In this document: piece by piece, positions 1 to 14,699 of the stretch
Position numbering within the stretch: position 1 is the first letter of the stretch
Layout: each line of letters starts with the position of its first letter
Virus record (IMG/VR): IMGVR_UViG_2850796239_000003
Span: 1 to 14,699 of that record
Length of the DNA: 14,699 bases
DNA from: a virus
Taxonomy: Duplodnaviria > Heunggongvirae > Uroviricota > Caudoviricetes
Direction: 5' to 3' (one strand)
Position numbers and translations under genes: made by a program
The notes under the pieces: model-generated
The model's input: the letters and a program-made list of their open reading frames with translations, nothing else
What the model was told of the DNA's origin: nothing
Databases searched by the model: none

Positions 1-201
1 TTACCCATTGGCGCGGCTTAAGAGCTTATTTTTGAATTCACAATGGTCACGATATAACCATCTTGCTCGCCCGTGGATAACTTTGGCTTTTGGCAGGTCG
101 CCGGACTTAATCCGGTCATAGATGAAGGTTTTACCAAAGCCAGTATCAGCCATGATGAATTTCAAATCAACCAGTGAATCAGGTTGTAGTTCGTGTTGCA
201 T
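1..201 (-). CDS. AlpA/TorI-family winged-helix prophage regulator, excisionase-like (66 aa)
   Basis: Complete ORF, ATG at 201-199 and stop at 3-1. GGAG lies 9 nt upstream of the ATG. The translation has the AlpA/Xis-type pattern (TGFGKTFIYDRIKSGDLP...GRARWL) and the 66-aa size typical of TorI-like recombination directionality factors. Family call is from memory, not a search. Confidence 0.7.
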   Translation of the reverse strand: MQHELQPDSLVDLKFIMADTGFGKTFIYDRIKSGDLPKAKVIHGRARWLYRDHCEFKNKLLSRANG

Positions 202-246: not shown

Positions 247-267
247 AAAAAAACCGCATTGATGCGG
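247..267 (-). terminator. Putative rho-independent terminator after the 346-561 ORF
   Basis: On the minus strand: stem CCGCA / TGCGG with loop TCAA, followed by TTTTTTTATT. Confidence 0.45.
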
Positions 268-345
268 CGATGGTAGGTCTGGATATCTTGATAAATGAAA
301 ATACCTCATCGAGTGTGAGGCGGTGTGATTTCTTTATTTACACTC

Positions 346-561
346 TTAATGTTTGTCAGTGAATGGTTTCCCCATCTCCAGTAATGCCTTACTCATCTCA
401 TTTCGTAACTCTATAGCCATCCTGACGGCTTCAACCTGTGCAGGATGTCGGTTAATTGCTGGAGAATATCGTCGGGAGCGAAGGATTGAGAAAACAAAGA
501 TAATGCAAGCAACTATCTGAATTGCATTGCATGTTATTGATACAATGTGAATTGCAGCCAT
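346..561 (-). CDS. Hypothetical small single-pass membrane protein (71 aa)
   Basis: ORF with a hydrophobic N-terminal ~28 residues (IHIVSITCNAIQIVACIIFVFSIL) followed by a basic RSRR and a charged C-terminal tail. Weak GGGG RBS. The start sits immediately after the upstream terminator U-tract, so expression is uncertain. Confidence 0.3.
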   Translation of the reverse strand: MAAIHIVSITCNAIQIVACIIFVFSILRSRRYSPAINRHPAQVEAVRMAIELRNEMSKALLEMGKPFTDKH

Positions 562-572
562 CTACTACCCCA

Positions 573-598
573 AATAAAAAAACCGCCATCAGGCGGCT
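573..598 (-). terminator. Putative rho-independent terminator after the zinc-ribbon gene
   Basis: On the minus strand: GCCGCC TGAT GGCGG(T) hairpin followed by TTTTTTTATTT. Confidence 0.55.
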
Positions 599-662
599 TG
601 GTGTTCTTTCAGTTCTTCAATTCGAATATTGGTTACATTGTTTTCATATATGAATAAATAAA

Positions 663-842
663 TTAGCTTTTTTCGTTGCCTTCGCGTTCTTTATTAATTT
701 TGACAAACTCGTTTTTACCAAGCTCTCCAAATGCGTCTTTAGAGTCGTTGTATCCGCAATCGCAGCACACATAATCACCAGACCATTCACGCATTGTTTT
801 TTCTTTTGCAATATTTCCAGAACCGCATTTTGGACAAGACAT
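663..842 (-). CDS. Standalone zinc-ribbon protein, YgiT/MqsA-N-terminal-like (59 aa)
   Basis: Start taken at the ATG at 842-840, which has GGAGG 7 nt upstream; the ORF-track start at 875 is a TTG with no RBS. Two Cys pairs, CPKCG and CCDCG, about 20 residues apart, then an acidic/lysine-rich tail. The resemblance to the MqsA zinc-binding domain (MKCPVC...YCVHC...ESDAF) is from memory. Confidence 0.55.
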   Translation of the reverse strand: MSCPKCGSGNIAKEKTMREWSGDYVCCDCGYNDSKDAFGELGKNEFVKINKEREGNEKS

Positions 843-979
843 ATCACTACCTCCAAAGCATGAGTGAGATGACAACGTAACATTGATTGGAGATTAACAA
901 TAGATTGCTGATGTAAAAGATATGTATAAGCTTCGCTTTCAAAGTGGAGGATCTGATAGCGGCATCTAGGCTGTGTCCC

Positions 980-1495
980 TTAATTACGTAAGCGTTGATA
1001 AAAGAGTCGGATGCAGCCCAGTTTCACCATCGCCAGGTAATTTCTCGCCGTTTTGTCGTAACGCGTGGCGATGCGGCGATATTCTTTCAGCCGCCCAAAG
1101 CACCGTTCAACGACATTACGATTGCGGTACGCATCACGATCAAGCTGTGCACGTCCATCCGATGCCATTTTCTCATTTGACTTTCGGGGGATTACTGCCT
1201 TTATACCGTTATTTTTCAGCTCGTTGCGCAATGCGCGCCCTGAATACGCTTTATCAGCCAGTACCGCATGTCCACGGCGTTTCATGCTGCCGTTCTGACG
1301 CTGAACGCCAATCCCGTCCAGAAGTCGTTGCGCGAACTGGCTTTCATGAGCTTGTCCGGGGCTTAGCACGATATTTAACGGGAGGCCACTTCCGTCTGTT
1401 GCCAGATGGATTTTGGTGCCAAAACCGCCGCGAGAGCGACCCAGCCCATTATCTCCGTCGATATCGGGATGTTTTTTTGAGCACCGGCGGCACAT
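980..1495 (-). CDS. IS5-family transposase orfB (DDE catalytic part, -1 frame relative to orfA)
   Basis: Contains GLGRSRGGFGTKIHLATDG, LADKAYSG and the Y-x2-R-x3-E-x6-K signature (DAYRNRNVVERCFGRLK). Overlaps orfA by about 120 nt across an A-run. Confidence 0.85.
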   Translation of the reverse strand: MCRRCSKKHPDIDGDNGLGRSRGGFGTKIHLATDGSGLPLNIVLSPGQAHESQFAQRLLDGIGVQRQNGSMKRRGHAVLADKAYSGRALRNELKNNGIKAVIPRKSNEKMASDGRAQLDRDAYRNRNVVERCFGRLKEYRRIATRYDKTARNYLAMVKLGCIRLFYQRLRN

Positions 1496-1824
1496 TTCAG
1501 CGCCCGGATATTACTGCCATCCAGCGCGGTGGCAGACCAGTCAATAAAGCCGTTTGCATCAAGTAGCGAAAGCAACCTGTTGAAAATAATATTAATCACG
1601 CCTGACTTTGACCATCGGTTAAAGCGGTTATAAACAGTTTTCCATGACCCATATCGTTCGGGTAAATCGCGCCATGGTGCACCGGAACATAACACCCAGA
1701 ACATGCCATTGATGATTTTACGGTGCTCAGCCCATGGGCGTCCGGCCCGTGGTGTGGCGGGTTCAGGAGGTAACAGGGGCTTGATGATGGTCCATGCCTC
1801 ATCGGGAAGGTCGTAGCGAGCCAT
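1375..1824 (-). CDS. IS5-family transposase orfA (149 aa, N-terminal DNA-binding part)
   Basis: MARYDLPDEAWTIIKPLLP...GRPWAEHRKIINGMFWVLCSGAPWRDLPERYGSWKTVYNRFNRW, the conserved N-terminal module of IS5/IS427-type transposases. Confidence 0.85.
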   Translation of the reverse strand: MARYDLPDEAWTIIKPLLPPEPATPRAGRPWAEHRKIINGMFWVLCSGAPWRDLPERYGSWKTVYNRFNRWSKSGVINIIFNRLLSLLDANGFIDWSATALDGSNIRALKCAAGAQKNIPISTEIMGWVALAAVLAPKSIWQQTEVASR

Positions 1825-1884
1825 AGTTCAATATGTTGTGTAAACAGACAGTTACTATAGCTCAGATGATTAAGGGACACAGCC

Positions 1885-2901
1885 TACATCACTGTTGTTG
1901 TTGAATATCAGCAACTGGAGGAAGCGATCAAGCTTAACCAACTGGAAGAAATTCTCGCGCCGGTTCGCCAGCGAATCGTTACCGACCTTGAAACAGAGCT
2001 TGCTCACTTCATGATGAATAACGGTGCGTTGTCACTTGGTAGCCCCAATACTCCAATCACCAAATGGTCTGATGTTGCGCAGACGGCATCTTTCCTGAAA
2101 GACCTCGGCGTTAATGAAGGTGAAAACTATGCTGTAATGGATCCATGGTCTGCACAGCGACTTGCTGATGCGCAGACTGGTTTGCACGCTTCAGATCAAT
2201 TGGTTCGTACTGCATGGGAGAATGCACAGATCCCAACCAATTTTGGCGGCATTCGCGCACTGATGTCTAATGGGCTTGCCTCTCGTACGCAGGGGGCATT
2301 TGGCGGAACACTGACAGTCAAAACACAGCCAACTGTTACCTATAACGCAGTTAAAGACTCATACCAGTTCACTGTAACATTGACCGGAGCGACAGCCAGC
2401 GTTACAGGTTTTCTGAAAGCTGGTGATCAGGTTAAATTCACCAATACCTACTGGCTGCAACAGCAGACCAAACAGGCGTTGTATAACGGAGCCACACCAA
2501 TTAGCTTCACTGCAACGGTTACTGCTGATGCTAATTCAGACAGCAGTGGCAATGTGACGGTTACGCTTTCTGGTGTTCCGATTTATGACACTACAAACCC
2601 GCAGTACAACTCTGTAAGTCGTCAGGTAGCGGCAAACGATGCCGTATCTGTAGTAGGCACTGCTAGCCAGACAATGAAGCCAAACCTGTTCTATAACAAG
2701 TTCTTCTGTGGACTTGGCTCTATCCCACTGCCGAAACTGCACAGTATTGATTCTGCTGTTGCAACATATGAAGGTTTCTCCATCCGCGTACATAAATACG
2801 CAGATGGCGATGCCAACGTGCAAAAAATGCGCTTTGACTTACTGCCTGCATATGTGTGCTTTAACCCTCACATGGGCGGTCAGTTCTTCGGTAATCCGTA
2901 A
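1885..2901 (+). pseudogene. Major capsid (coat) protein of a P22-like phage, 5'-truncated at the IS boundary (about 338 C-terminal codons)
   Basis: The reading frame is open from the first base after IS copy 1 to TAA at 2899-2901, with no plausible start or RBS at the 5' end. It lies immediately upstream of clear gp4 and gp10 homologs, the coat position in P22-like late operons, and shows loose local similarity to P22 coat. No N-terminal coat sequence exists left of the IS. Confidence 0.65.
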
Positions 2902-3594: not shown

Positions 3595-5013
3595 ATGCCT
3601 ATTCAGCAACTTCCGCTTATGAAAGGTGTCGGCAAAGACTTTCGAAACGCCGACTATATCGACTATCTGCCAGTGAATATGCTGGCTACACCCAAAGAAA
3701 TCCTGAACAGCAGCGGATATCTTCGCTCATTCCCTGGCATTGCCAAACGCTCTGATGTGAACGGTGTATCTCGCGGCGTCGAGTACAACATGGCGCAGAA
3801 TGCTGTTTATCGTGTGTGTGGTGGCAAGCTGTACAAAGGAGAAAGTGAAGTCGGTGACGTCGCCGGAAGTGGTCGCGTATCAATGGCGCATGGTCGTACA
3901 TCTCAGGCGATAGGTGTTAATGGTCAACTGGTCGAGTATCGCTATGATGGCACGATTAAAACCGTCTCAAACTGGCCTACAGATAGCGGATTCACTCAGT
4001 ATGAGCTAGGTTCGGTTCGTGACATTACGCGCTTACGTGGGCGTTATGCGTGGTCAAAAGACGGTACTGATTCATGGTTTATCACTGACCTTGAAGACGA
4101 ATCACATCCTGACCGATACAGCGCACAATATCGCGCAGAATCTCAGCCTGATGGCATCATCGGCATAGGGACATGGCGAGACTTCATCGTCTGCTTTGGT
4201 TCATCGACGATTGAATATTTCTCCCTGACTGGTGCAACCACCGTTGGTGCTGCTTTGTATGTCGCCCAGCCATCATTGATGGTGCAAAAAGGCATCGCCG
4301 GGACTTACTGCAAAACGCCGTTTGCTGATTCCTATGCTTTCATCAGCAACCCGGCAACGGGTGCGCCGTCTGTGTACATCATCGGTTCCGGTCAGGTATC
4401 ACCAATCGCCAGCGCGAGCATTGAGAAAATACTTCGCTCCTACACTGCTGATGAACTGGCTGATGGTGTGATGGAGTCTCTGCGATTTGATGCGCATGAG
4501 TTGCTGATTATCCATCTTCCGCGTCACGTCCTTGTGTACGATGCATCTTCAAGCGCCAATGGTCCGCAATGGTGTGTGCTGAAAACAGGCCTGTATGACG
4601 ATGTGTACCGCGCTATCGACTTCATTTACGAAGGCAATCAGATAACGTGCGGCGATAAGCTGGAATCCGTGACCGGGAAACTGCAGTTCGATATCAGCAG
4701 CCAGTACGACAAGCAGCAGGAACACCTGCTGTTTACTCCGTTGTTCAAAGCGGATAACGCCAGATGCTTCGATCTGGAGGTGGAATCATCCACTGGCGTA
4801 GCTCAGTACGCCGACCGCCTGTTCCTCTCTGCAACCACTGACGGCATCAATTACGGACGTGAGCAGATGATTGAGCAGAATGAACCGTTCGTTTACGACA
4901 AACGCGTTTTGTGGAAGCGAGTAGGGCGCATCAGGAAAAATGTCGGCTTCAAATTGCGCATTATCACGAAGTCACCTGTCACTCTGTCTGGCACTCAGAT
5001 AAGGATTGAGTAA
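3595..5013 (+). CDS. Packaged-DNA stabilisation / tail hub protein, P22 gp10-like (472 aa)
   Basis: N-terminus [49 protein letters not shown] matches recalled P22 gp10. Same length as P22 gp10. AGGTG RBS. Stop overlaps the next start (TAATG). Confidence 0.88.
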
Positions 5014-5861
5014 TGGCGGATTCGAATCTCAATACACCTGTTATTGTTCAGGCGACGCGGCTCGATACATCAATCCTTCCACGCAATATCTTCTCGCAGT
5101 CGTATCTGCTTTACGTTATCGCACAGGGTACTGATGTTGGTAACGTGGTGAATAAGGCCAACGAGTCCGGACAGGGCGCTTATGACGCGCAGGTAAGGAA
5201 CGATGAGCAGGATGTGATTCTGGTTGATCACGAAATTCGACTGGCATCAGCTGAAGCGAAGATACAGGACCACGAAACAAGGATCACTAACGCAGAAGCA
5301 GCGATAGTCGGCCTTGATTCGCGATTAACGACAGCAGAAAACGATATTGATTATCTGACTGATGAAGTTGTCGCCATTCAAAACACGCTTTCAGACCATG
5401 AAACGCGCATCGATGCTCTGGAGTATGCCACTACTCGCAAGAAGTCAGAGGTTGTTTACTCTGGCGTATCTGTAACCATCCCGACAGCGCCGACTAACCT
5501 TGTTAGCCTGCTGAAAACGCTCACGCCGTCATCCGGCTCGTTGGCACCATTCTTCGACACCGTTAACAACAAGATGGTTGTGTTCAACGAGAACAAAACC
5601 TTGTTCTTCAAGTTGTCGATTGTCGGGACGTGGCCCAGTGGAACCGCAAACAGGTCAATGCAGCTAACCTTTTCCGGCTCTGTTCCTGACACGTTGGTCA
5701 GCAGTCGTAATGCGGCGACAACAACCGATAACATCTTGTTAGCTACGTTCTTCAGCGTGGATAAAGACGGCTTTCTTGTCACAAATGGCAGCACGTTAAC
5801 CATTCAGTCAAATGGTGCGGCGTTTACTGCCACAACCATCAAGATAATCGCGGAGCAGTGA
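5013..5861 (+). CDS. Tail needle, P22 gp26-like N-terminus with C-terminal knob domain (282 aa)
   Basis: N-terminal ~60 residues ([43 protein letters not shown]...[16 protein letters not shown]) match recalled P22 gp26. A heptad-rich coiled-coil stretch is followed by a C-terminal domain of ~140 residues that P22 gp26 lacks, as in Sf6-type needles. Confidence 0.88.
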
Positions 5862-6318: not shown

Positions 6319-6856
6319 ATGTTATATGCATTTAAGCTGGGCAGAAAACTGCGCGGCGAGGAACCTTATTGCCCTGAAAAAGGCGGGAAAGGTGGCTCCG
6401 ATAAAAGCGCAAAGTATGCAGCAGAAGCTCAGAAGTATGCCGCAGACCTGCAAAATCAGCAGTGGCAGACGATCATGAAAAACCTTGCTCCGTTCACGCC
6501 TCTTGCGGAGCAGTATGTTAACCAGCTTCAGAACCTTTCCAGTTTAGAAGGTCAGGGGCAGGCACTTAATCAGTATTACAACTCTCAGCAGTATAAAGAC
6601 CTTGCAGGTCAGGCTCGTTACCAGAGTCTTGCTGCTGCGGAGGCGACGGGTGGACTTGGTTCGACAGCCACAAGCAATCAACTGGCTACGATCGCGCCTA
6701 CTCTCGGTCAGTCTTGGTTATCAAACCAGATGAGCAATTACAACAATCTGGCAAACGTTGGGCTTGGTGCACTTCAAGGTCAGGCAAACGCCGGGCAGAC
6801 GTACGCCAACAACATGAGCAGCATTGCACAGCAAAGCGCAGCTCTTGCCGCTGCTA
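6319..6856 (+). pseudogene. Ejection protein, P22 gp7-like, 5' fragment interrupted by IS copy 2
   Basis: ORF starts at ATG 6319 and runs into the IS, where the frame terminates artificially (...ARLCPLII*). Q/N/A-rich ejection-protein-like composition. Position matches gene 7. Confidence 0.7.
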
Positions 6857-6872
6857 GGCTGTGTCCCTTAAT
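6857..6872. repeat. Left terminal inverted repeat of IS copy 2
   Basis: GGCTGTGTCCCTTAAT, a perfect reverse complement of 7757-7772. Confidence 0.85.
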
Positions 6873-6916
6873 CATCTGAGCTATAGTAACTGTCTGTTTA
6901 CACAACATATTGAACT

Positions 6917-7366
6917 ATGGCTCGCTACGACCTTCCCGATGAGGCATGGACCATCATCAAGCCCCTGTTACCTCCTGAACCCGCCACACCACGGGCCGGA
7001 CGCCCATGGGCTGAGCACCGTAAAATCATCAATGGCATGTTCTGGGTGTTATGTTCCGGTGCACCATGGCGCGATTTACCCGAACGATATGGGTCATGGA
7101 AAACTGTTTATAACCGCTTTAACCGATGGTCAAAGTCAGGCGTGATTAATATTATTTTCAACAGGTTGCTTTCGCTACTTGATGCAAACGGCTTTATTGA
7201 CTGGTCTGCCACCGCGCTGGATGGCAGTAATATCCGGGCGCTGAAATGTGCCGCCGGTGCTCAAAAAAACATCCCGATATCGACGGAGATAATGGGCTGG
7301 GTCGCTCTCGCGGCGGTTTTGGCACCAAAATCCATCTGGCAACAGACGGAAGTGGCCTCCCGTTAA
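6917..7366 (+). CDS. IS5-family transposase orfA (149 aa)
   Basis: Identical translation to copy 1 orfA. Confidence 0.85.
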   Translation: MARYDLPDEAWTIIKPLLPPEPATPRAGRPWAEHRKIINGMFWVLCSGAPWRDLPERYGSWKTVYNRFNRWSKSGVINIIFNRLLSLLDANGFIDWSATALDGSNIRALKCAAGAQKNIPISTEIMGWVALAAVLAPKSIWQQTEVASR

Positions 7367-7761
7367 ATATCGTGCTAAGCCCCGGACAAGCTCATGAAAG
7401 CCAGTTCGCGCAACGACTTCTGGACGGGATTGGCGTTCAGCGTCAGAACGGCAGCATGAAACGCCGTGGACATGCGGTACTGGCTGATAAAGCGTATTCA
7501 GGGTGCGCATTGCGCAACGAGCTGAAAAATAACGGTATAAAGGCAGTAATCCCCCGAAAGTCAAATGAGAAAATGGCATCGGATGGACGTGCACAGCTTG
7601 ATCGTGATGCGTACTGCAATCGTAATGTCGTTGAACGGTGCTTTGGGCGGCTGAAAGAATATCGCCGCATCGCCACGCGTTACGACAAAACGGCGAGAAA
7701 TTACCTGGCGATGGTGAAACTGGGCTGCATCCGACTCTTTTATCAACGCTTACGTAATTAA
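7246..7761 (+). CDS. IS5-family transposase orfB (DDE domain, -1 frame)
   Basis: As copy 1 orfB, with two Arg to Cys differences (TGC at 7504-7506 and 7615-7617 where copy 1 has CGC). Confidence 0.85.
   Translation: MCRRCSKKHPDIDGDNGLGRSRGGFGTKIHLATDGSGLPLNIVLSPGQAHESQFAQRLLDGIGVQRQNGSMKRRGHAVLADKAYSGCALRNELKNNGIKAVIPRKSNEKMASDGRAQLDRDAYCNRNVVERCFGRLKEYRRIATRYDKTARNYLAMVKLGCIRLFYQRLRN
7264..7270 (+). other. Candidate -1 programmed frameshift heptamer A AAA AAC joining orfA to orfB
   Basis: In the orfA frame the codons are caA AAA AAc. A -1 slip enters the orfB frame (..SKKHPDID..). The same motif occurs in copy 1 at 1471-1477 as a reverse complement. Confidence 0.5.
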
Positions 7762-7772
7762 GGGACACAGCC
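7757..7772. repeat. Right terminal inverted repeat of IS copy 2
   Basis: ATTAAGGGACACAGCC, a perfect reverse complement of 6857-6872. Confidence 0.85.
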
Positions 7773-7774
7773 TA

Positions 7775-11796: not shown

Positions 11797-12063
11797 CTAT
11801 GTTTCCTTTTTATTATTGCTATACATGGTCTTAAGCGTTTCAAAAACCATTTTCTTAACCATATCAGATTGTTGTTCTGCCATACGCTCTGCATCGTCAA
11901 TGTAAACTGATGCAGAGCTTTGTTTATCCAATGATTCCTCAATCGCTGCAATTATCTCTGAGTTCAGCGATCTGTTATTCATCTTCGCACGCTGTTTAAT
12001 TTTCGCGTGGAGTTCATGCGGAAGTATCAAGTGAAACTGCGCCTCGTCGTATTTGCTGTACAT
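11797..12063 (-). CDS. mnt: Mnt-like ribbon-helix-helix repressor (immI region), 88 aa
   Basis: Translation aligns with recalled P22 Mnt (window NNRSLNSEII...DDAERMAEQQSDMVKKMVFETLKTMY versus P22 NGRSMNSELL...NDAERLADEQSELVKKMVFDTLKDLY). Start at ATG 12063 is preferred; the alternative ATG at 12096 would give 99 aa. Confidence 0.8.
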   Translation of the reverse strand: MYSKYDEAQFHLILPHELHAKIKQRAKMNNRSLNSEIIAAIEESLDKQSSASVYIDDAERMAEQQSDMVKKMVFETLKTMYSNNKKET

Positions 12064-12134
12064 CCTTGATGCCTCACCAGTTGGGTGGAATGGCATCGTA
12101 ACCTACTGGATAAATACTCAATAGTACCATTTCG

Positions 12135-12150: not shown

Positions 12151-13056
12151 CTATATTTCCAGACATCTGTTATCACTTAACCCATTACAAGCCCGCTGCC
12201 GCAGATATTCCCGTGGCGAGCGATAACCCAGCGCACTATGCGGATGCCATTCGTTATAATGCTCGAACGCCTCTGCAAGGTTCTTTGCTGCCGTTAACCC
12301 GTCTGGTTTGGGCATGATACTGATGTAGTCACGCTTTATCGTTTTCACGAAGCTCTCTGCTATTCCGTTACTCTCCGGACTCCGCACCGCCGTGTTCTTC
12401 GGTTCAAGTCCCAACATCCGGGCGAACTGGCGTGTTTCATTAGCCCGGTAGCATGAACCATTATCCGTCAGCCACTCCACTGGAGACGACGGAAGATCGT
12501 TGCCGAAGCGGCGTTCCACCGCTCCCAGCATGACGTCCTGTACTGTTTCACTGTTGAAGCCGCCGGTAGTCACCGCCCAGTGCAGTGCCTCACGATCACA
12601 GCAGTCCAGCGCGAACGTGACACGCAGTCTCTCTCCGTTATCACAGCAGAACTCGAACCCGTCAGAGCACCATCGCTGATTGCTTTCTTTCACGGCCACT
12701 CTGCCTGTATGTGCCCGTTTCGATGGCGGTACAGCAGGTTTTCGCTCAAGCAACAGCGCATTCTGGCGCATGATCCGGTAAACACGTTTGGCATTGATCG
12801 CAGGCATACCATCAAGTTCTGCCTGTCTGCGAAGCAGCGCCCATACCCGACGATAACCATACGTGGGCAGCTCTCCGATAACATGGTGTATACGGAGAAG
12901 CACATCCGTATCATCAGTGTGACGACTGCGGCGGCCATCCATCCAGTCATCGGTTCGTCTGAGAATGACGTGCAACTGCGCACGCGACACCCGGAGACAA
13001 CGGCTGACTAAGCTTACTCCCCATCCCCGGGCAATAAGGGCGCGTGCGCTATCCAC
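12151..13056 (-). CDS. insD: IS2 transposase OrfB (InsD), 301 aa
   Basis: Translation [28 protein letters not shown]... with an IS3-family DDE integrase core. Overlaps insC in the -1 frame. Confidence 0.9.
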
Positions 13057-13379
13057 TTTTTTGCCCGTCCATATTCAACGGCTTCTTTGAGGAGTTCATT
13101 TTCCATCGTTTTCTTGCCGAGCAGGCGCTGGAGTTCTTTAATCTGCTTCATGGCGGCAGCAAGTTCAGAGGCAGGAACAACCTGTTCTCCGGCGGCCACA
13201 GCAGTAAGACTTCCTTCCTGGTATTGCTTACGCCAGAGAAATAACTGGCTGGCTGCTACACCATGTTGCCGGGCAACGAGGGAGACCGTCATCCCCGGTT
13301 CAAAGCTCTGCTGAACAATTGCGATCTTTTCCTGTGTGGTACGCCGTCTGCGTTTCTCCGGCCCTAAGACATCAATCAT
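13014..13379 (-). CDS. insC: IS2 transposase OrfA (InsC), 121 aa
   Basis: [41 protein letters not shown]..., a helix-turn-helix protein. Start taken at the internal ATG at 13379 rather than the 136-aa ORF-track start. Confidence 0.9.
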
Positions 13380-13470
13380 CTGTACTCCAATGACTAGTCT
13401 AAAAACTAGTATTAAGACTATCACTTATTTAAGTGATACTGGTTGTCTGGAGATTCAGGGGGCCAGTCTA

Positions 13471-13475
13471 GTATG
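13471..13475. repeat. IS2 target-site duplication (GTATG), right copy
   Basis: Identical to 12135-12139. Confidence 0.85.
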
Positions 13476-13520
13476 CAATCACATCATGGTTGCATCATAT
13501 CATTCGTCTGGAGCAATGAA

Positions 13521-14676
13521 ATGTCAGATATCACCGCAAATGTTGTGGTAAGCATGCCTTCGCAACTCTTCACTATGGCTCGTTCTTTTAAAGCGGTTGC
13601 CAATGGCAAAATTTATATCGGTAAAATTGACACGGATCCGGTAAATCCTGAAAACCAGATTCAGGTTTATTTAGAGAACGAAGACGGCTCTTACGTTCCT
13701 GTTTCACAACCAATCATCATTAACGCTGCTGGTTACCCTGTATATAACGGACAGATTGCCAAATTCGTTACCGTGCAAGGCCATTCTATGGCTGTTTATG
13801 ATGCGTACGGTGCGCAGCAGTTTTATTTTCCGAATGTGCTGAAGTACGACCCGGATCAGCTTGAGAAAAGATTGTCGTTAAACACGGGAGCTTCCCTGAT
13901 TGGTACATATTCAGGAGCATCGATTCAGTCGGAGATTGACTGTATTAATGAAAGCATTGAAATTATCAATAATGACGAACTTCCAAATCTATCGCTAGGG
14001 GTGGCATCATCTATAAAAACATCGGTCCAAATAATTGATGAAATTAAAGATCCATCTATTTCTTATGATGCATTTGGTAACTCCGTGTTCTACAATGGCC
14101 GCAATTTATTTTGCTTCAGGAGATCACCTGAGCATGTTGATACTTATACAGGCATGCACAGTGTGTGCATAGCAGAAATACTCAACAATGGAGCTTGTAA
14201 AATAATATGGGAATATACTGATAATACTGGCAATGCACCTAAAGATCCTACATTATCAGTCAGTAACCCAGGTAATACACTAATTATTTCTTTTCAGATT
14301 CATAATGTTTCATCTGATACATATACTTCTGGTATTATTGGATATCCTGATTTGTCAAATACTGGTAAGTTTTTATCAAGTTCTGAACTTACCACGGATC
14401 ATAACGTTTTTTTATGGGGTAATGTACTGCAAACTCCATCTGGAAATTTTATAACATCCAGATATAAAATTGATGGCACTGGTGTAGAGATAATTTCTTC
14501 ATCTGATACAAATTTAAACGAAAATACAACATGGTCTATAGTTAGTACACTTTCTGTTGGTTCGTTCCAGACAAGAACATCAGTTAATGAATGCAGTCTT
14601 TCATATTATAGAAATCAACTAGTTGCAATAGTCAGAACTCAGTCAGGCTCTTCTTTGGGTGGTTTTGGATATGCTA
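13521..14676 (+). pseudogene. Tailspike: P22 gp9-type head-binding N-terminal domain fused to a divergent AT-rich receptor-binding domain, 3'-truncated by IS copy 3
   Basis: ATG at 13521 with GGAG 7 nt upstream. The first ~110 residues ([50 protein letters not shown]...[12 protein letters not shown]...NVLKYDPDQ) match the recalled P22 tailspike head-binding domain; the rest is unrelated and visibly AT-rich. The frame runs into the IS at 14677, leaving about 385 codons. Confidence 0.85.
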
Positions 14677-14699
14677 GGCTGTGTCCCTTAATCATCTGA
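14677..14699 (+). mobile_element. IS5-family IS (same element), copy 3, left end only (cut by the window edge)
   Basis: GGCTGTGTCCCTTAATCATCTGA is identical to the first 23 nt of copy 2 and is preceded by TA at 14675-14676. Confidence 0.8.

Follow-up and report, generated by a model that had tools for sequence, protein, structure and literature searches.

Probable independent cassettes, eaG and an overlooked small membrane-protein gene, at the distal end of a P22-like leftward early operon

The gene eaG is part of the early left operon of the P22-like phages. It lies just upstream of the t'I terminator and the excision genes in P22, in HK620, in Sf101 and in E. coli prophages, and the function of P22 EaG is entered as 'Unknown' (PMC4837284). 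The t'I block is common to lambda, P22 and HK620. In lambda the block shares sequence with the 3' end of orf55, placing the orf55 stop codon in the hairpin loop, and xis comes next. In P22 the same hairpin has been annotated in two ways, as t'I in L06296 and, in NC_002371, as the site where the antisense aI RNA terminates. Another small protein of a lambdoid early-left operon, the zinc-ribbon protein Lar of the Rac prophage, alleviates type I restriction. Under the name RalR it has been reported as a DNase toxin whose partner in a type I toxin-antitoxin system is the sRNA RalA (PMC4041452).

Here we analyse a stretch of 14,699 nucleotides (the window) from the Caudoviricetes record IMGVR_UViG_2850796239_000003, in which the original prediction had described positions 346-968 as a module of an MqsA-like zinc-ribbon gene and a small membrane-protein ORF (ORF71). 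All the features lie where they had been placed, on the minus strand, and both genes are indeed small genes in a prophage accessory region. Our best explanation, to which we give a probability of about 0.8, is that the region comes from a P22-like prophage remnant (Lederbergvirus, of the HK620/Sf6/Sf101 type), in which it forms the promoter-distal end of the leftward early (PL) operon and carries eaG and ORF71 as independent cassettes. Read along the minus strand, the order is the insertion sequence (IS), a stub of an ead- or DUF551-type gene, eaG, t'I, ORF71, a dead stub of a P22-type xis, a second terminator and torI (Table 1). The torI product is equal in sequence to the protein annotated as 'response regulator inhibitor TorI' (WP_001163428.1) in E. 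coli relatives and matches the excisionase family phrog_66. In the intact relative ETEC1739, every gene from the N-like antiterminator (phrog_271) through torI lies on one strand.

Table 1 Features of the distal part of the leftward operon and of the adjoining insertion sequence, with positions in the window.
Feature	Position	Strand	Description
torI	1..201	-	66 aa; excisionase of the KplE1/HK620 type and inhibitor of TorR; ends the leftward operon
Second intrinsic-terminator hairpin	253..268	-	GCCGCATCAATGCGG followed by a T-run; closes the ORF71 cassette
P22-type xis 5' remnant	272..330	-	codons 2-21; 53/59 nt identity
ORF71	346..561	-	71 aa, small membrane protein gene; phrog_15342
t'I block, 60 bp	577..636	-	identical to lambda 29106-29165; hairpin 580-599
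eaG (P22 EaG, HK620 HkaD)	663..842	-	59 aa, four-Cys zinc ribbon with a short C-terminal helix
Upstream early-gene 3' end, ~28 nt	939..966 (approximate)	-	cut by the IS
ISSfl7-like IS5-family IS, 920 bp	967..1886	.	terminal inverted repeats; identical inverted copy at 6855-7774

On its sequence, the zinc-ribbon gene is P22 eaG, or hkaD in HK620, a known gene of this operon. Searches with tblastn against P22, HK620 and Sf101 give 91.5% identity to P22 EaG and 94.9% to HK620 HkaD, and protein identity to the known gene spans 91.5-96.6%. The product matches phrog_2945 (E = 1.8e-30, residues 1-58) and carries the RefSeq name 'Eag protein', under which it is annotated in hundreds of genomes. Like its P22 counterpart, the gene encodes 59 aa and has a GGAGG Shine-Dalgarno sequence (850-854, with the ATG at 840-842); nothing material distinguishes the two, except that the operon upstream of the window copy has been deleted by the IS. 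The four cysteines are arranged as C3-x2-C6 and C26/C27-x-C29, and an AlphaFold2 model shows two short strands and a helix at residues 42-54 (mean pLDDT 64.5). Most of the apparently divergent matches in the EaG profile are frameshifted translations of the same gene; the model is therefore shallow and fold searches yield generic ribbons only, with none at E <= 0.001 among the 50 Foldseek PDB matches listed. Against PADLOC-DB the protein gives nothing beyond weak matches of its zinc ribbon to Cas12 models (E = 0.008 and 0.039). EaG would be a soluble zinc-ribbon protein that binds protein or nucleic acid, possibly a distant relative of Lar/RalR.

We compared EaG with the MqsA/YgiT ribbon, to which it had been assigned. 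The likeness extends to the first CPxC knuckle and the general idea of a Cys4 ribbon. The two cysteine pairs are 19 residues apart in EaG and about 30 in MqsA. No match to TIGR03831 or to the MqsA Pfam family was found up to E = 10, a listing that is incomplete above about 0.1, where HMMER filters drop most matches; the similarity found is to generic zinc ribbons and below threshold. MqsA chains were absent both from the PDB sequence matches (listed to E = 10) and from the 50 listed Foldseek PDB matches, and the Smith-Waterman score against an approximate sequence of the MqsA N-domain was not significant, being reached by 135 of 2,000 shuffles. The original prediction had named the lack of a YgiT profile match together with the lack of a conserved neighbour as grounds for its refutation, and this combination is what we find. 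The MqsA/YgiT assignment is rejected by the Pfam, NCBIfam, PDB sequence and Foldseek PDB searches and by the shuffle test. Two other parts of the original prediction agree with our results. The zinc-ribbon protein has no helix-turn-helix domain, since it comprises only 59 aa and its short helix follows the ribbon and matches no HTH family. An MqsR-like partner is likewise missing: in intact relatives the neighbours are ead/Ea22-like genes, DUF551 genes or eaA upstream, and t'I with xis, eaC or ORF71 downstream.

A second assignment fares better. EaG may be a divergent member of the Lar/RalR family (PF14354, TIGR03655), in which case it would be an early protein that counters restriction or targets DNA; judged on sequence comparison, this is a tentative reading that we consider somewhat improbable. 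Both proteins are Cys4 ribbons of about 60 aa that have a helix at the C-terminus; in each case the gene stands two genes upstream of the excisionase gene in a lambdoid early-left operon, and the gene orders run in parallel (xisR, rcbA with the antisense RalA, and ralR in Rac; xis, eaC with the antisense aI RNA, and eaG in P22). Many EaG clusters bear a precomputed PF14354 tag. The Pfam profile Lar_restr_allev scores EaG at 22.7 bits (E = 1.2e-4), which falls below its gathering score of 28.6, and the TIGR03655 score of 13.6 lies far under the cut-off of 39.6. BLASTP against K-12 RalR gives E = 0.001 with 30% identity over 54 residues that include the C-terminal helix, and a Smith-Waterman score of 55 was reached by 2 of 2,000 shuffles with the cysteines fixed; in the pairwise alignment, however, the second cysteine pair is out of register and the W of the WNKR motif of RalR faces an I in EaG. 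RalR weakly matches the PHROG of EaG (E = 0.2), but EaG itself matches no Lar-like PHROG at E <= 1, and HVO_2753-type ribbons score it equally well or better. Together with the generic ribbons of the fold search, these results describe a similarity that is weak, beyond chance and below both curated family thresholds. An IMG/VR scan with RalR returned only copies 98-100% identical, a set too narrow for a profile-profile comparison with the Lar family.

The terminator that follows eaG is a real intrinsic hairpin followed by a T-run (fold of -14.2 kcal/mol, z = -2.3), as had been proposed, although it does not belong to the zinc-ribbon gene as its own element: it is the t'I of lambda and P22. The block is identical to lambda at 60 of 60 nucleotides and forms part of a 106-nt exact match to P22, and we aligned it for lambda, P22, Sf101 and the window. 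Unlike in lambda, the window block has eaG before it and ORF71 after it. A terminator scan of positions 1-1100 called five terminator-like sites, compared with 0.8 +/- 0.8 in shuffled sequence. Among them, the hairpin at 303-321 lies inside the xis remnant. The second terminator (fold of -8.3 kcal/mol, z = -2.5) belongs to the direct-repeat family D4; over 25 nt, positions 244-268 show 84% identity to the t'I hairpin region (573-597), and the sequence 3' of this terminator matches the sequence that follows t'I in HK620. An RNA gene in the t'I/ORF71 region was considered and rejected, as the Rfam matches (isrK, 18 against 50 bits; FtrA; Phe leader) are all sub-threshold and driven by the terminator hairpin.

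The interval between t'I and the excisionase gene appears to be a slot that is filled differently from phage to phage. As part of the same overall explanation, we consider it probable that ORF71 is one of several unrelated alternative genes in this slot. It is occupied by ORF71 in the window, by eaC in P22 and by a 114-aa gene in many E. coli prophages, and it is empty in HK620, where t'I is joined straight to the torI leader. Both eaC and the 114-aa gene begin right after the same t'I T-run. In its site, in a ribosome-binding site immediately behind the T-run and in a gene end just before xis, ORF71 resembles P22 eaC, and it has the same boundaries as the 114-aa gene; it differs from eaC in having no equivalent of PaI/aI RNA. 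No similarity was found between ORF71 and either EaC or the 114-aa protein, and ORF71 is the sole membrane-anchored occupant among those seen. The inserts in the window and in E. coli strain H3 differ from each other and have the 3' xis stub and the second terminator in common. In the window the xis remnant agrees at 53 of 59 nt with the beginning of the P22-type xis found immediately after the gene of P0004, a homologue of ORF71 described below, and is non-coding because the start codon has been lost and an in-frame TAA is present. The 60-bp t'I block and the 5' end of xis probably serve as shared recombination boundaries for cargo swaps. ORF71 is moron-like in the sense of Juhala and Hendrix, being an extra gene between two genes relative to HK620 with a terminator closing the cassette, yet it is not a classical autonomously expressed moron because a promoter of its own was not found.

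The ORF71 family is tiny. Among 5.8 billion proteins, a word-indexed search with the single sequence and a profile returned four clusters only; an exhaustive phmmer search of 1.84 billion representatives returned two, and none was found in 185,579 GTDB species-representative genomes. An IMG/VR scan yielded 29 near-identical full copies, one shortened copy and one spurious high-GC match. The gene is present in 79 of 5,426 complete E. coli genomes, where RefSeq annotation misses it in 79 of 79, and it is carried by the phages Sf101 and IME10, whose GenBank records both miss it.

The ORF could in principle be no gene at all, and instead a frame left open by chance in non-coding sequence, either a spacer or a leader, between t'I and the excisionase gene. 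The minute family, the missing annotation in the NCBI pipeline and in both phage records, and the scan for consensus sigma-70 sites, which detected no promoter for it, would all fit such a frame. The pattern of sequence change argues against it and marks ORF71 as a genuine gene. The frame is open in 22 of 22 haplotypes, the sole indel being 6 nt long and in frame, and of the six frames it holds the most synonymous changes. P0004, which is encoded 2 nt upstream of a P22-type xis, is syntenic, 45% identical and of the same length and architecture; at 54% nucleotide identity it keeps the transmembrane segment and the motif HPAQ..AV..A..LR.EM..KP, and its gene has an AGGAG Shine-Dalgarno sequence. 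Between the two, pN is 0.36 and pS 0.81, synonymous sites are saturated, and the differences fall 29/23/41 over the three codon positions. Because the family is so small, this inference of conservation rests on essentially one divergent homologue. Within the close clade, 12 synonymous and 23 non-synonymous variants give a ratio of about 0.54, which is indecisive in that it is not clearly apart from neutral. ORF71 also has a PHROG family to which it aligns over its entire length (phrog_15342, E = 4.1e-50, residues 1-71 on profile positions 1-71 of 71), and a Shine-Dalgarno GGGG (568-571) stands 6 nt ahead of its ATG. We therefore consider a chance frame very unlikely.

The single hydrophobic helix and basic tail that had been ascribed to the 71-aa protein are confirmed, with a hydrophobic maximum at residues 6-24 and a net charge of +4 over residues 28-71. 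The predicted architecture is a transmembrane helix at about residues 2-27, an RSRR sequence, a linker and a cytoplasmic helix at 40-62, and the AlphaFold2 model has helices at 2-31 and 40-62 (mean pLDDT 79). The protein would span the inner membrane once, as a bitopic protein whose N-terminus lies outside and whose C-terminus lies inside. Along the transmembrane helix runs a conserved polar stripe (H5, S8, N12, Q15, C19), which suggests that the protein associates with itself or docks onto a membrane protein of the host. In length (about 70 aa) and in its single transmembrane helix, ORF71 would resemble the small membrane proteins of phages and prophages, such as type I toxins and YdfD of the Qin prophage. 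It shows no relation in sequence to any known toxin or defence family: Pfam and NCBIfam gave no match at E <= 10 and PADLOC gave none at E <= 1. Neither P0004 nor the 114-aa alternative matches PADLOC-DB. A wider proposal, which we regard as speculative and improbable as a whole, is that ORF71 and P0004 form an unannotated family of phage bitopic inner-membrane proteins, carried as exchangeable cargo in a t'I-excisionase hotspot of P22-like phages, made only after antitermination, with the host envelope or a membrane-bound host system as their target. Under that proposal, they might depolarise the membrane in the manner of a viroporin, inhibit a membrane defence effector or a sensor kinase, or serve as exclusion factors.

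We next consider how eaG and ORF71 would be expressed. A scan for consensus sigma-70 sites found no promoter-like site on either strand of positions 1-1100, and the ORF71 ATG lies 14 nt after the t'I T-run. It follows that in an intact phage both genes would be made only in lytic growth or on induction. From the gene layout we infer that their expression needs N-type antitermination from PL; an N-like antiterminator would carry PL transcription past t'I, and the excisionase gene would be expressed along with the two genes. Candidate activator sites of the cII/C1 type (TTGC-N6-TTGC) were rejected, since they are not enriched in the window and the one in ORF71 is misplaced relative to a -10-like motif.

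This motif belongs to another reading, in which ORF71 is a type I toxin under a short antisense RNA that starts at the extended -10-like TGATACAAT (plus strand, 538-546) and ends at the reverse face of the t'I hairpin. The TG-n-TACAAT motif is present, the hairpin is the one annotated as the antisense aI RNA terminator in P22, the arrangement echoes both aI RNA and the RalA of Rac, and ORF71 has the build of a small hydrophobic protein. The promoter scan, however, makes no call at the motif, which lies in codons 6-8 of ORF71, varies among haplotypes (V7I, V7A and one synonymous change) and is missing from the P0004 gene. The T-run on the plus-strand side of t'I is poor, the sole TTGC-N6-TTGC-like site (527-540) directly abuts the motif, and no Rfam family reaches threshold. 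We regard such an antisense arrangement as highly improbable.

The co-occurrence data speak against a pairing of the two genes and largely refute the module that had been proposed. Across the 5,426 complete E. coli genomes, eaG is found in 329 and ORF71 in 79, and they are adjacent in three. At 38 ORF71 loci, several of which are duplicate records of one phage, the t'I block lies upstream in every case (38/38), while the gene upstream is lambda orf55-like in 23, eaG in 9 and another gene in 6, so that eaG is missing from 29. In HK620, eaG adjoins the excisionase gene without ORF71. As had been anticipated, the genes are not a canonical toxin-antitoxin pair: they are not inherited together, and t'I separates them. 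Nothing was found in favour of a co-transcribed pair or an antisense RNA linking them, given the terminator between them, the absence of a promoter-like site on either strand and the absence of an Rfam family at threshold. A module in which the two genes work together, such as a small membrane toxin controlled by an MqsA-like zinc ribbon with a further partner lost to the IS, can draw on the adjacent, co-oriented genes in the window, Sf101, ETEC1739, N9 and AST19 and on the general resemblance of ORF71 to small membrane toxins, but is scarcely credible against the rarity of the adjacency, the intervening terminator, an EaG that lacks both an MqsA or YgiT match and an HTH domain, and intact relatives without an MqsR-like neighbour. 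The adjacency is an accident of phage mosaic exchange, and neither protein would regulate the other.

Finally, we examined what the IS has removed. Its transposase has DUF4096 and DDE_Tnp_1 domains and is annotated in E. coli as 'IS5-like element ISSfl7 family transposase'. The right edge of the predicted region (968) is the IS junction, because the IS begins at 967. An exact 45-nt pattern spanning the junction on the eaG side had no match in the species-representative genomes, and the junction is covered by none of the complete E. coli genomes. The alignment of the eaG upstream region with intact relatives extends to the IS end, and the stub cut there corresponds to a gene annotated as ead/Ea22-like or DUF551 type in four relatives. 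On the far side, the coat gene abuts the IS and its product matches only positions 124-423 of the Pfam profile, positions 1-123 being missing. The IS connects the eaG upstream region with the coat gene at about codon 124. This arrangement implies that PL and the N-like gene have been deleted, along with the immunity, replication and lysis genes and the early head genes. Upstream sequence has therefore been removed, as had been suspected; the suggestion that a partner of the zinc-ribbon gene went with it does not hold, as intact relatives carry an ordinary ead/Ea22-like or DUF551 early gene at that place and never an MqsR-like toxin. With PL and the antiterminator gene apparently lost in this ISSfl7-associated deletion, eaG and ORF71 are probably silent relics in the window.

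The main value of these results is annotation hygiene, and they leave the current understanding of lambdoid phages unchallenged. What looked like a standalone MqsA-like zinc ribbon is P22 eaG, and its terminator is the classical t'I block. There is also an annotation gap, a 71-codon membrane-protein gene that has been missed in 79 complete E. coli genomes and in the GenBank records of Sf101 and IME10. If EaG were a Lar/RalR-type anti-restriction protein, which is a weaker addition to the wider proposal on ORF71 and P0004, the end of the operon would be an anti-defence corner. The t'I-xis interval acts as a small cargo slot with at least three unrelated genes, and if any of its cargo proves to be an anti-defence or host-takeover factor, the slot would be a convenient place to find more.

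By sequence, the zinc-ribbon gene of the window is the P22 gene eaG, and its product, which begins MSCPKCGSGNIAKEKTMREWSGDYVCCDCGYN (translation of 663–842, minus strand), is no MqsA relative. A tblastn search found eaG in 40 phage records, with 91.5% identity to the EaG proteins of P22, ST64T and phage L, 94.9% to HkaD of HK620 and 93–97% to the copies of Sf101, HK629 and HK633; phrog_2945 matches EaG with E = 1.8e-30, and a RefSeq 'Eag protein' is present in 329 of 5,426 complete E. coli genomes. The function of EaG is entered as unknown (PMC4837284). The original prediction had assigned the protein to the MqsA/YgiT type, an assignment that the profile searches do not bear out: no such model is among the Pfam and NCBIfam matches listed up to E = 10, and the sub-threshold matches are to generic ribbons (among them HVO_2753 at 23.9 bits, Lar_restr_allev at 22.7, and the TFIIB and IS1 ribbons). 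A PDB sequence search and Foldseek searches of the PDB and of the viral structure library BFVD, run with a modest structure model (pLDDT 64.5), gave nothing at E ≤ 0.001; the resemblances are to ribosomal, TFIIB, RNA-polymerase and HVO_2753 ribbons, and MqsA is absent from the 50 PDB fold matches listed by Foldseek. The apparent diversity of EaG in databases consists largely of frameshifted copies of one sequence; real variation in the family is very small, with identities mostly above 83%. Apparently divergent entries include P0020, P0021, P0027, P0031, P0033, P0037 and P0038; many such entries arise from frameshifts or read-through in the translation of one gene.

The strong hairpin downstream of eaG, previously taken for a terminator of its own, is the t'I block of lambda and P22. 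Scanning positions 1–1100 gave five terminator-like sites against 0.8 ± 0.8 in shuffles, and the RNA fold of this hairpin has −14.2 kcal/mol (z = −2.3). Window positions 577–636 are identical to lambda 29106–29165 (60/60), and positions 577–682 are identical to P22 (106/106). GenBank L06296 names the element t'I by identity with lambda, and in NC_002371 the hairpin, read on the opposite strand, is the terminator of the antisense aI RNA, annotated as C1-activated and starting inside eaC; both eaG and t'I have been on record since the P22 entries of the 1990s. In lambda, orf55 (55 codons) ends within the block, its stop codon lying in the hairpin loop. This gene is lambdap35, 'predicted by GeneMark' (lambda locus L043, 1419–1586, minus strand). 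Related genes lie at about 3739–3908 in loci L044–L046, with 93–99% DNA identity to lambda orf55, and it is an orf55-like gene that most often precedes ORF71, the 71-aa membrane-protein ORF, in E. coli prophages.

Coordinates of features in the window
Feature	Positions	Strand	Remarks
P22-type xis stub, dead	272–330	minus	53/59 identical to codons 2–21 of the xis following P0004 (ORF71 homologue); start codon lost
ORF71, 71 codons	346–561	minus	start 14 bases past t'I T-run; GGGG Shine-Dalgarno at 568–571
Hairpin + T-run (t'I), strong	580–599	minus	64 bases 3' of eaG stop codon
eaG, 59 codons	663–842	minus	ATG start; GGAGG at 850–854
ISSfl7-like IS, copy 1	967–1886		IS5 family, 920 bp; its end is the right edge of 346–968
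Tail needle gene	5013–5861	plus	Sf6-type knob domain PF16532
ISSfl7-like IS, copy 2	6855–7774		inverted, 100% identical to copy 1; interrupts gene 7
mnt	11797–12096
IS3-family element	12151–13424	minus	HTH_Tnp_1 orfA, rve orfB; between mnt and tailspike gene
Tailspike gene	13443–14699
ISSfl7-like IS, copy 3	14675–14699		starts inside tailspike gene, cutting it

The ORFs themselves were confirmed at 346–968, namely a 59-codon frame with its GGAGG and a 71-codon frame with a hydrophobic N-terminus and a basic C-terminal part. In the ORF71 protein the hydrophobic segment is followed by RSRR and a C-terminal part of net charge +4, and the AlphaFold2 model (mean pLDDT 79) consists of a helix (2–31), a linker of 8 residues and a second helix (40–62). 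No Pfam, NCBIfam or PADLOC family was found for it; phrog_15342 covers it end to end (E = 4e-50). Sf101 (L003 3001–3216) and IME10 (L007 5001–5216) carry the gene without annotation, as do 79 of the 5,426 E. coli genomes, where the annotation is always 'none' (e.g. L044 3501–3716). As a CDS, ORF71 is missing from every RefSeq and GenBank record examined, a systematic gap in the annotation of small genes: PHROGs lists the family, and genome annotation overlooks it.

The 38 copies represent 22 DNA haplotypes, all open, with a single indel of 6 nt. Within this shallow clade, 12 synonymous and 23 non-synonymous variants (ratio about 0.54) make the frame the best of six, which is not decisive. The decisive evidence is P0004, a divergent homologue of 74 aa and 45% identity detected by exhaustive phmmer among 1.84 billion representatives. 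It keeps M1, H5–I9, C11, N12, I14–I16, C19 and F22 of the transmembrane helix and HPAQ..AV..A..LR.EM......KP in the second helix; its gene belongs to an E. coli prophage, is preceded by AGGAG as Shine-Dalgarno and is followed after 2 nt by a P22-type xis. Between the two genes pS is 0.81 (saturated) and pN 0.36, with differences by codon position of 29/23/41. This comparison indicates that ORF71, narrowly distributed and rarely annotated, is a real gene. Further relatives were found neither among 5.8 billion proteins, nor by profile search, nor in 185,579 species-representative genomes. Antisense to codons 6–8 lies an extended −10-like motif, TGATACAAT (538–546, plus strand), directed at the t'I hairpin. 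Other haplotypes and the P0004 gene do not conserve this motif, and scanning for promoters gave no call there.

Contrary to the original prediction, eaG and ORF71 form no module. Set against the 329 genomes with eaG and the 79 with ORF71, a torI-ORF71-eaG query (torI being the excisionase gene) reached at least 80% coverage in only three. The t'I block stands immediately upstream in all 38 full-ORF71 loci, which include several duplicate records of one phage, and the gene before it is orf55-like in 23, eaG in 9 and another in 6. Downstream, 13 loci have a torI-type excisionase gene and 14 an AlpA-family gene of the Sf101 type; the remainder have other genes. HK620 has eaG without ORF71, in the order eaG – t'I – torI with nothing between. 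The invariant t'I, the varied upstream gene and the HK620 order therefore tie ORF71 to t'I and the excision module, not to eaG. In IME10 (L007 4613–4925) the upstream gene is a different Cys-rich ORF (CSLC...CLNC), apparently split by a frameshift; it may encode a further small early protein that binds zinc, or the sequence may contain an error.

A slot between t'I and xis emerges when the window is aligned with HK620, P22 and strain H3 of E. coli. In HK620 the T-run is joined directly to the sequence that follows the second hairpin (253–268) of the window. Strain H3 carries in the slot a 114-aa gene unrelated to the ORF71 insert, and both inserts share their edges, starting directly after the T-run and ending in the same stub and second terminator. 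In P22 the slot is occupied by eaC, whose ribosome-binding site directly follows the T-run; sequence comparison shows no relationship of ORF71 to EaC or to the 114-aa protein. The dead xis stub, which contains the weak 'terminator' call at 303–321, stands between ORF71 and the torI leader, and in other E. coli prophages it closes the cassette of the 114-aa gene too. Being common to unrelated cassettes, it indicates that the excision module was swapped by recombination inside xis. The hairpin repeats bracketing the ORF71 cassette (244–268 and 573–597) are direct and 84% identical over 25 nt, a likeness consistent with cassette exchange at short shared sequences; relative to HK620, the cassette may have been gained or lost by recombination between them. 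The region holds real features of ordinary lambdoid mosaic architecture, and neither the MqsA likeness nor the module is supported.

In ETEC1739, an intact relative, all genes lie on one strand, from an N-like antiterminator (phrog_271) through kil, erf, abc2, ead and eaG to torI, and no sigma-70-like promoter was detected on either strand of 1–1100. Both eaG and ORF71 would be delayed-early genes, read only with antiterminated PL transcripts passing t'I, together with the excisionase gene, and neither is likely to be a conversion gene expressed in the lysogen. By the positive-inside rule, ORF71 would have a periplasmic N-terminus of 1–2 residues and a cytoplasmic C-terminal helix. Its conserved H5-S8-N12-Q15-C19 stripe, with 3-4-3-4 spacing, could mediate helix–helix association, either as a pore-like self-oligomer or by docking onto a host membrane protein, a reading we consider rather unlikely.

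The locus is decayed. IS copy 1 connects a coat gene matching only Pfam profile positions 124–423 with 28 nt left over from the gene upstream of eaG; the PL promoter and the antiterminator, immunity, replication, lysis, terminase, portal and scaffold genes have therefore been lost. The deletion that it marks spans roughly 20 kb, from upstream of eaG to about coat codon 124. ISSfl7 is rare (46 of 5,426 complete E. coli genomes), and the eaG-side/IS junction occurs in none of the 5,426; both observations point to a source resembling Shigella. Both genes, eaG and ORF71, have most likely become silent relics in the genome of the window. The tail needle knob assigns the remnant to the Sf6/HK620 type of virion module, not the P22 type.

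Finally, EaG might be a divergent Lar-like protein. RalR (Lar), a 64-aa Cys4 protein of PF14354, is reported (PMC4041452) to be a DNase toxin whose type I partner is RalA, and earlier work described it as alleviating restriction (King and Murray 1995, as cited in PMC4041452). The E. coli K-12 Rac order xisR – rcbA (with antisense sRNA RalA) – ralR (L048 2238–2928) is paralleled in P22 by xis – eaC (antisense aI RNA) – eaG (L041 3501–4769), each comprising an excisionase gene, an antisense-RNA-bearing middle gene and a small Cys4 zinc-ribbon gene. BLASTP aligns EaG with RalR over 54 residues (E = 0.001). The similarity is weak and exceeds chance: of 2,000 shuffles with the cysteines fixed, only 2 reached the Smith-Waterman score. 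However, EaG falls under both curated Lar-family thresholds, the second Cys pairs fail to line up and the reciprocal PHROG match reaches only E = 0.2. Membership is not established, and we hold it as possible at odds clearly below even; the link between EaG and Lar/RalR is the single lead worth keeping.
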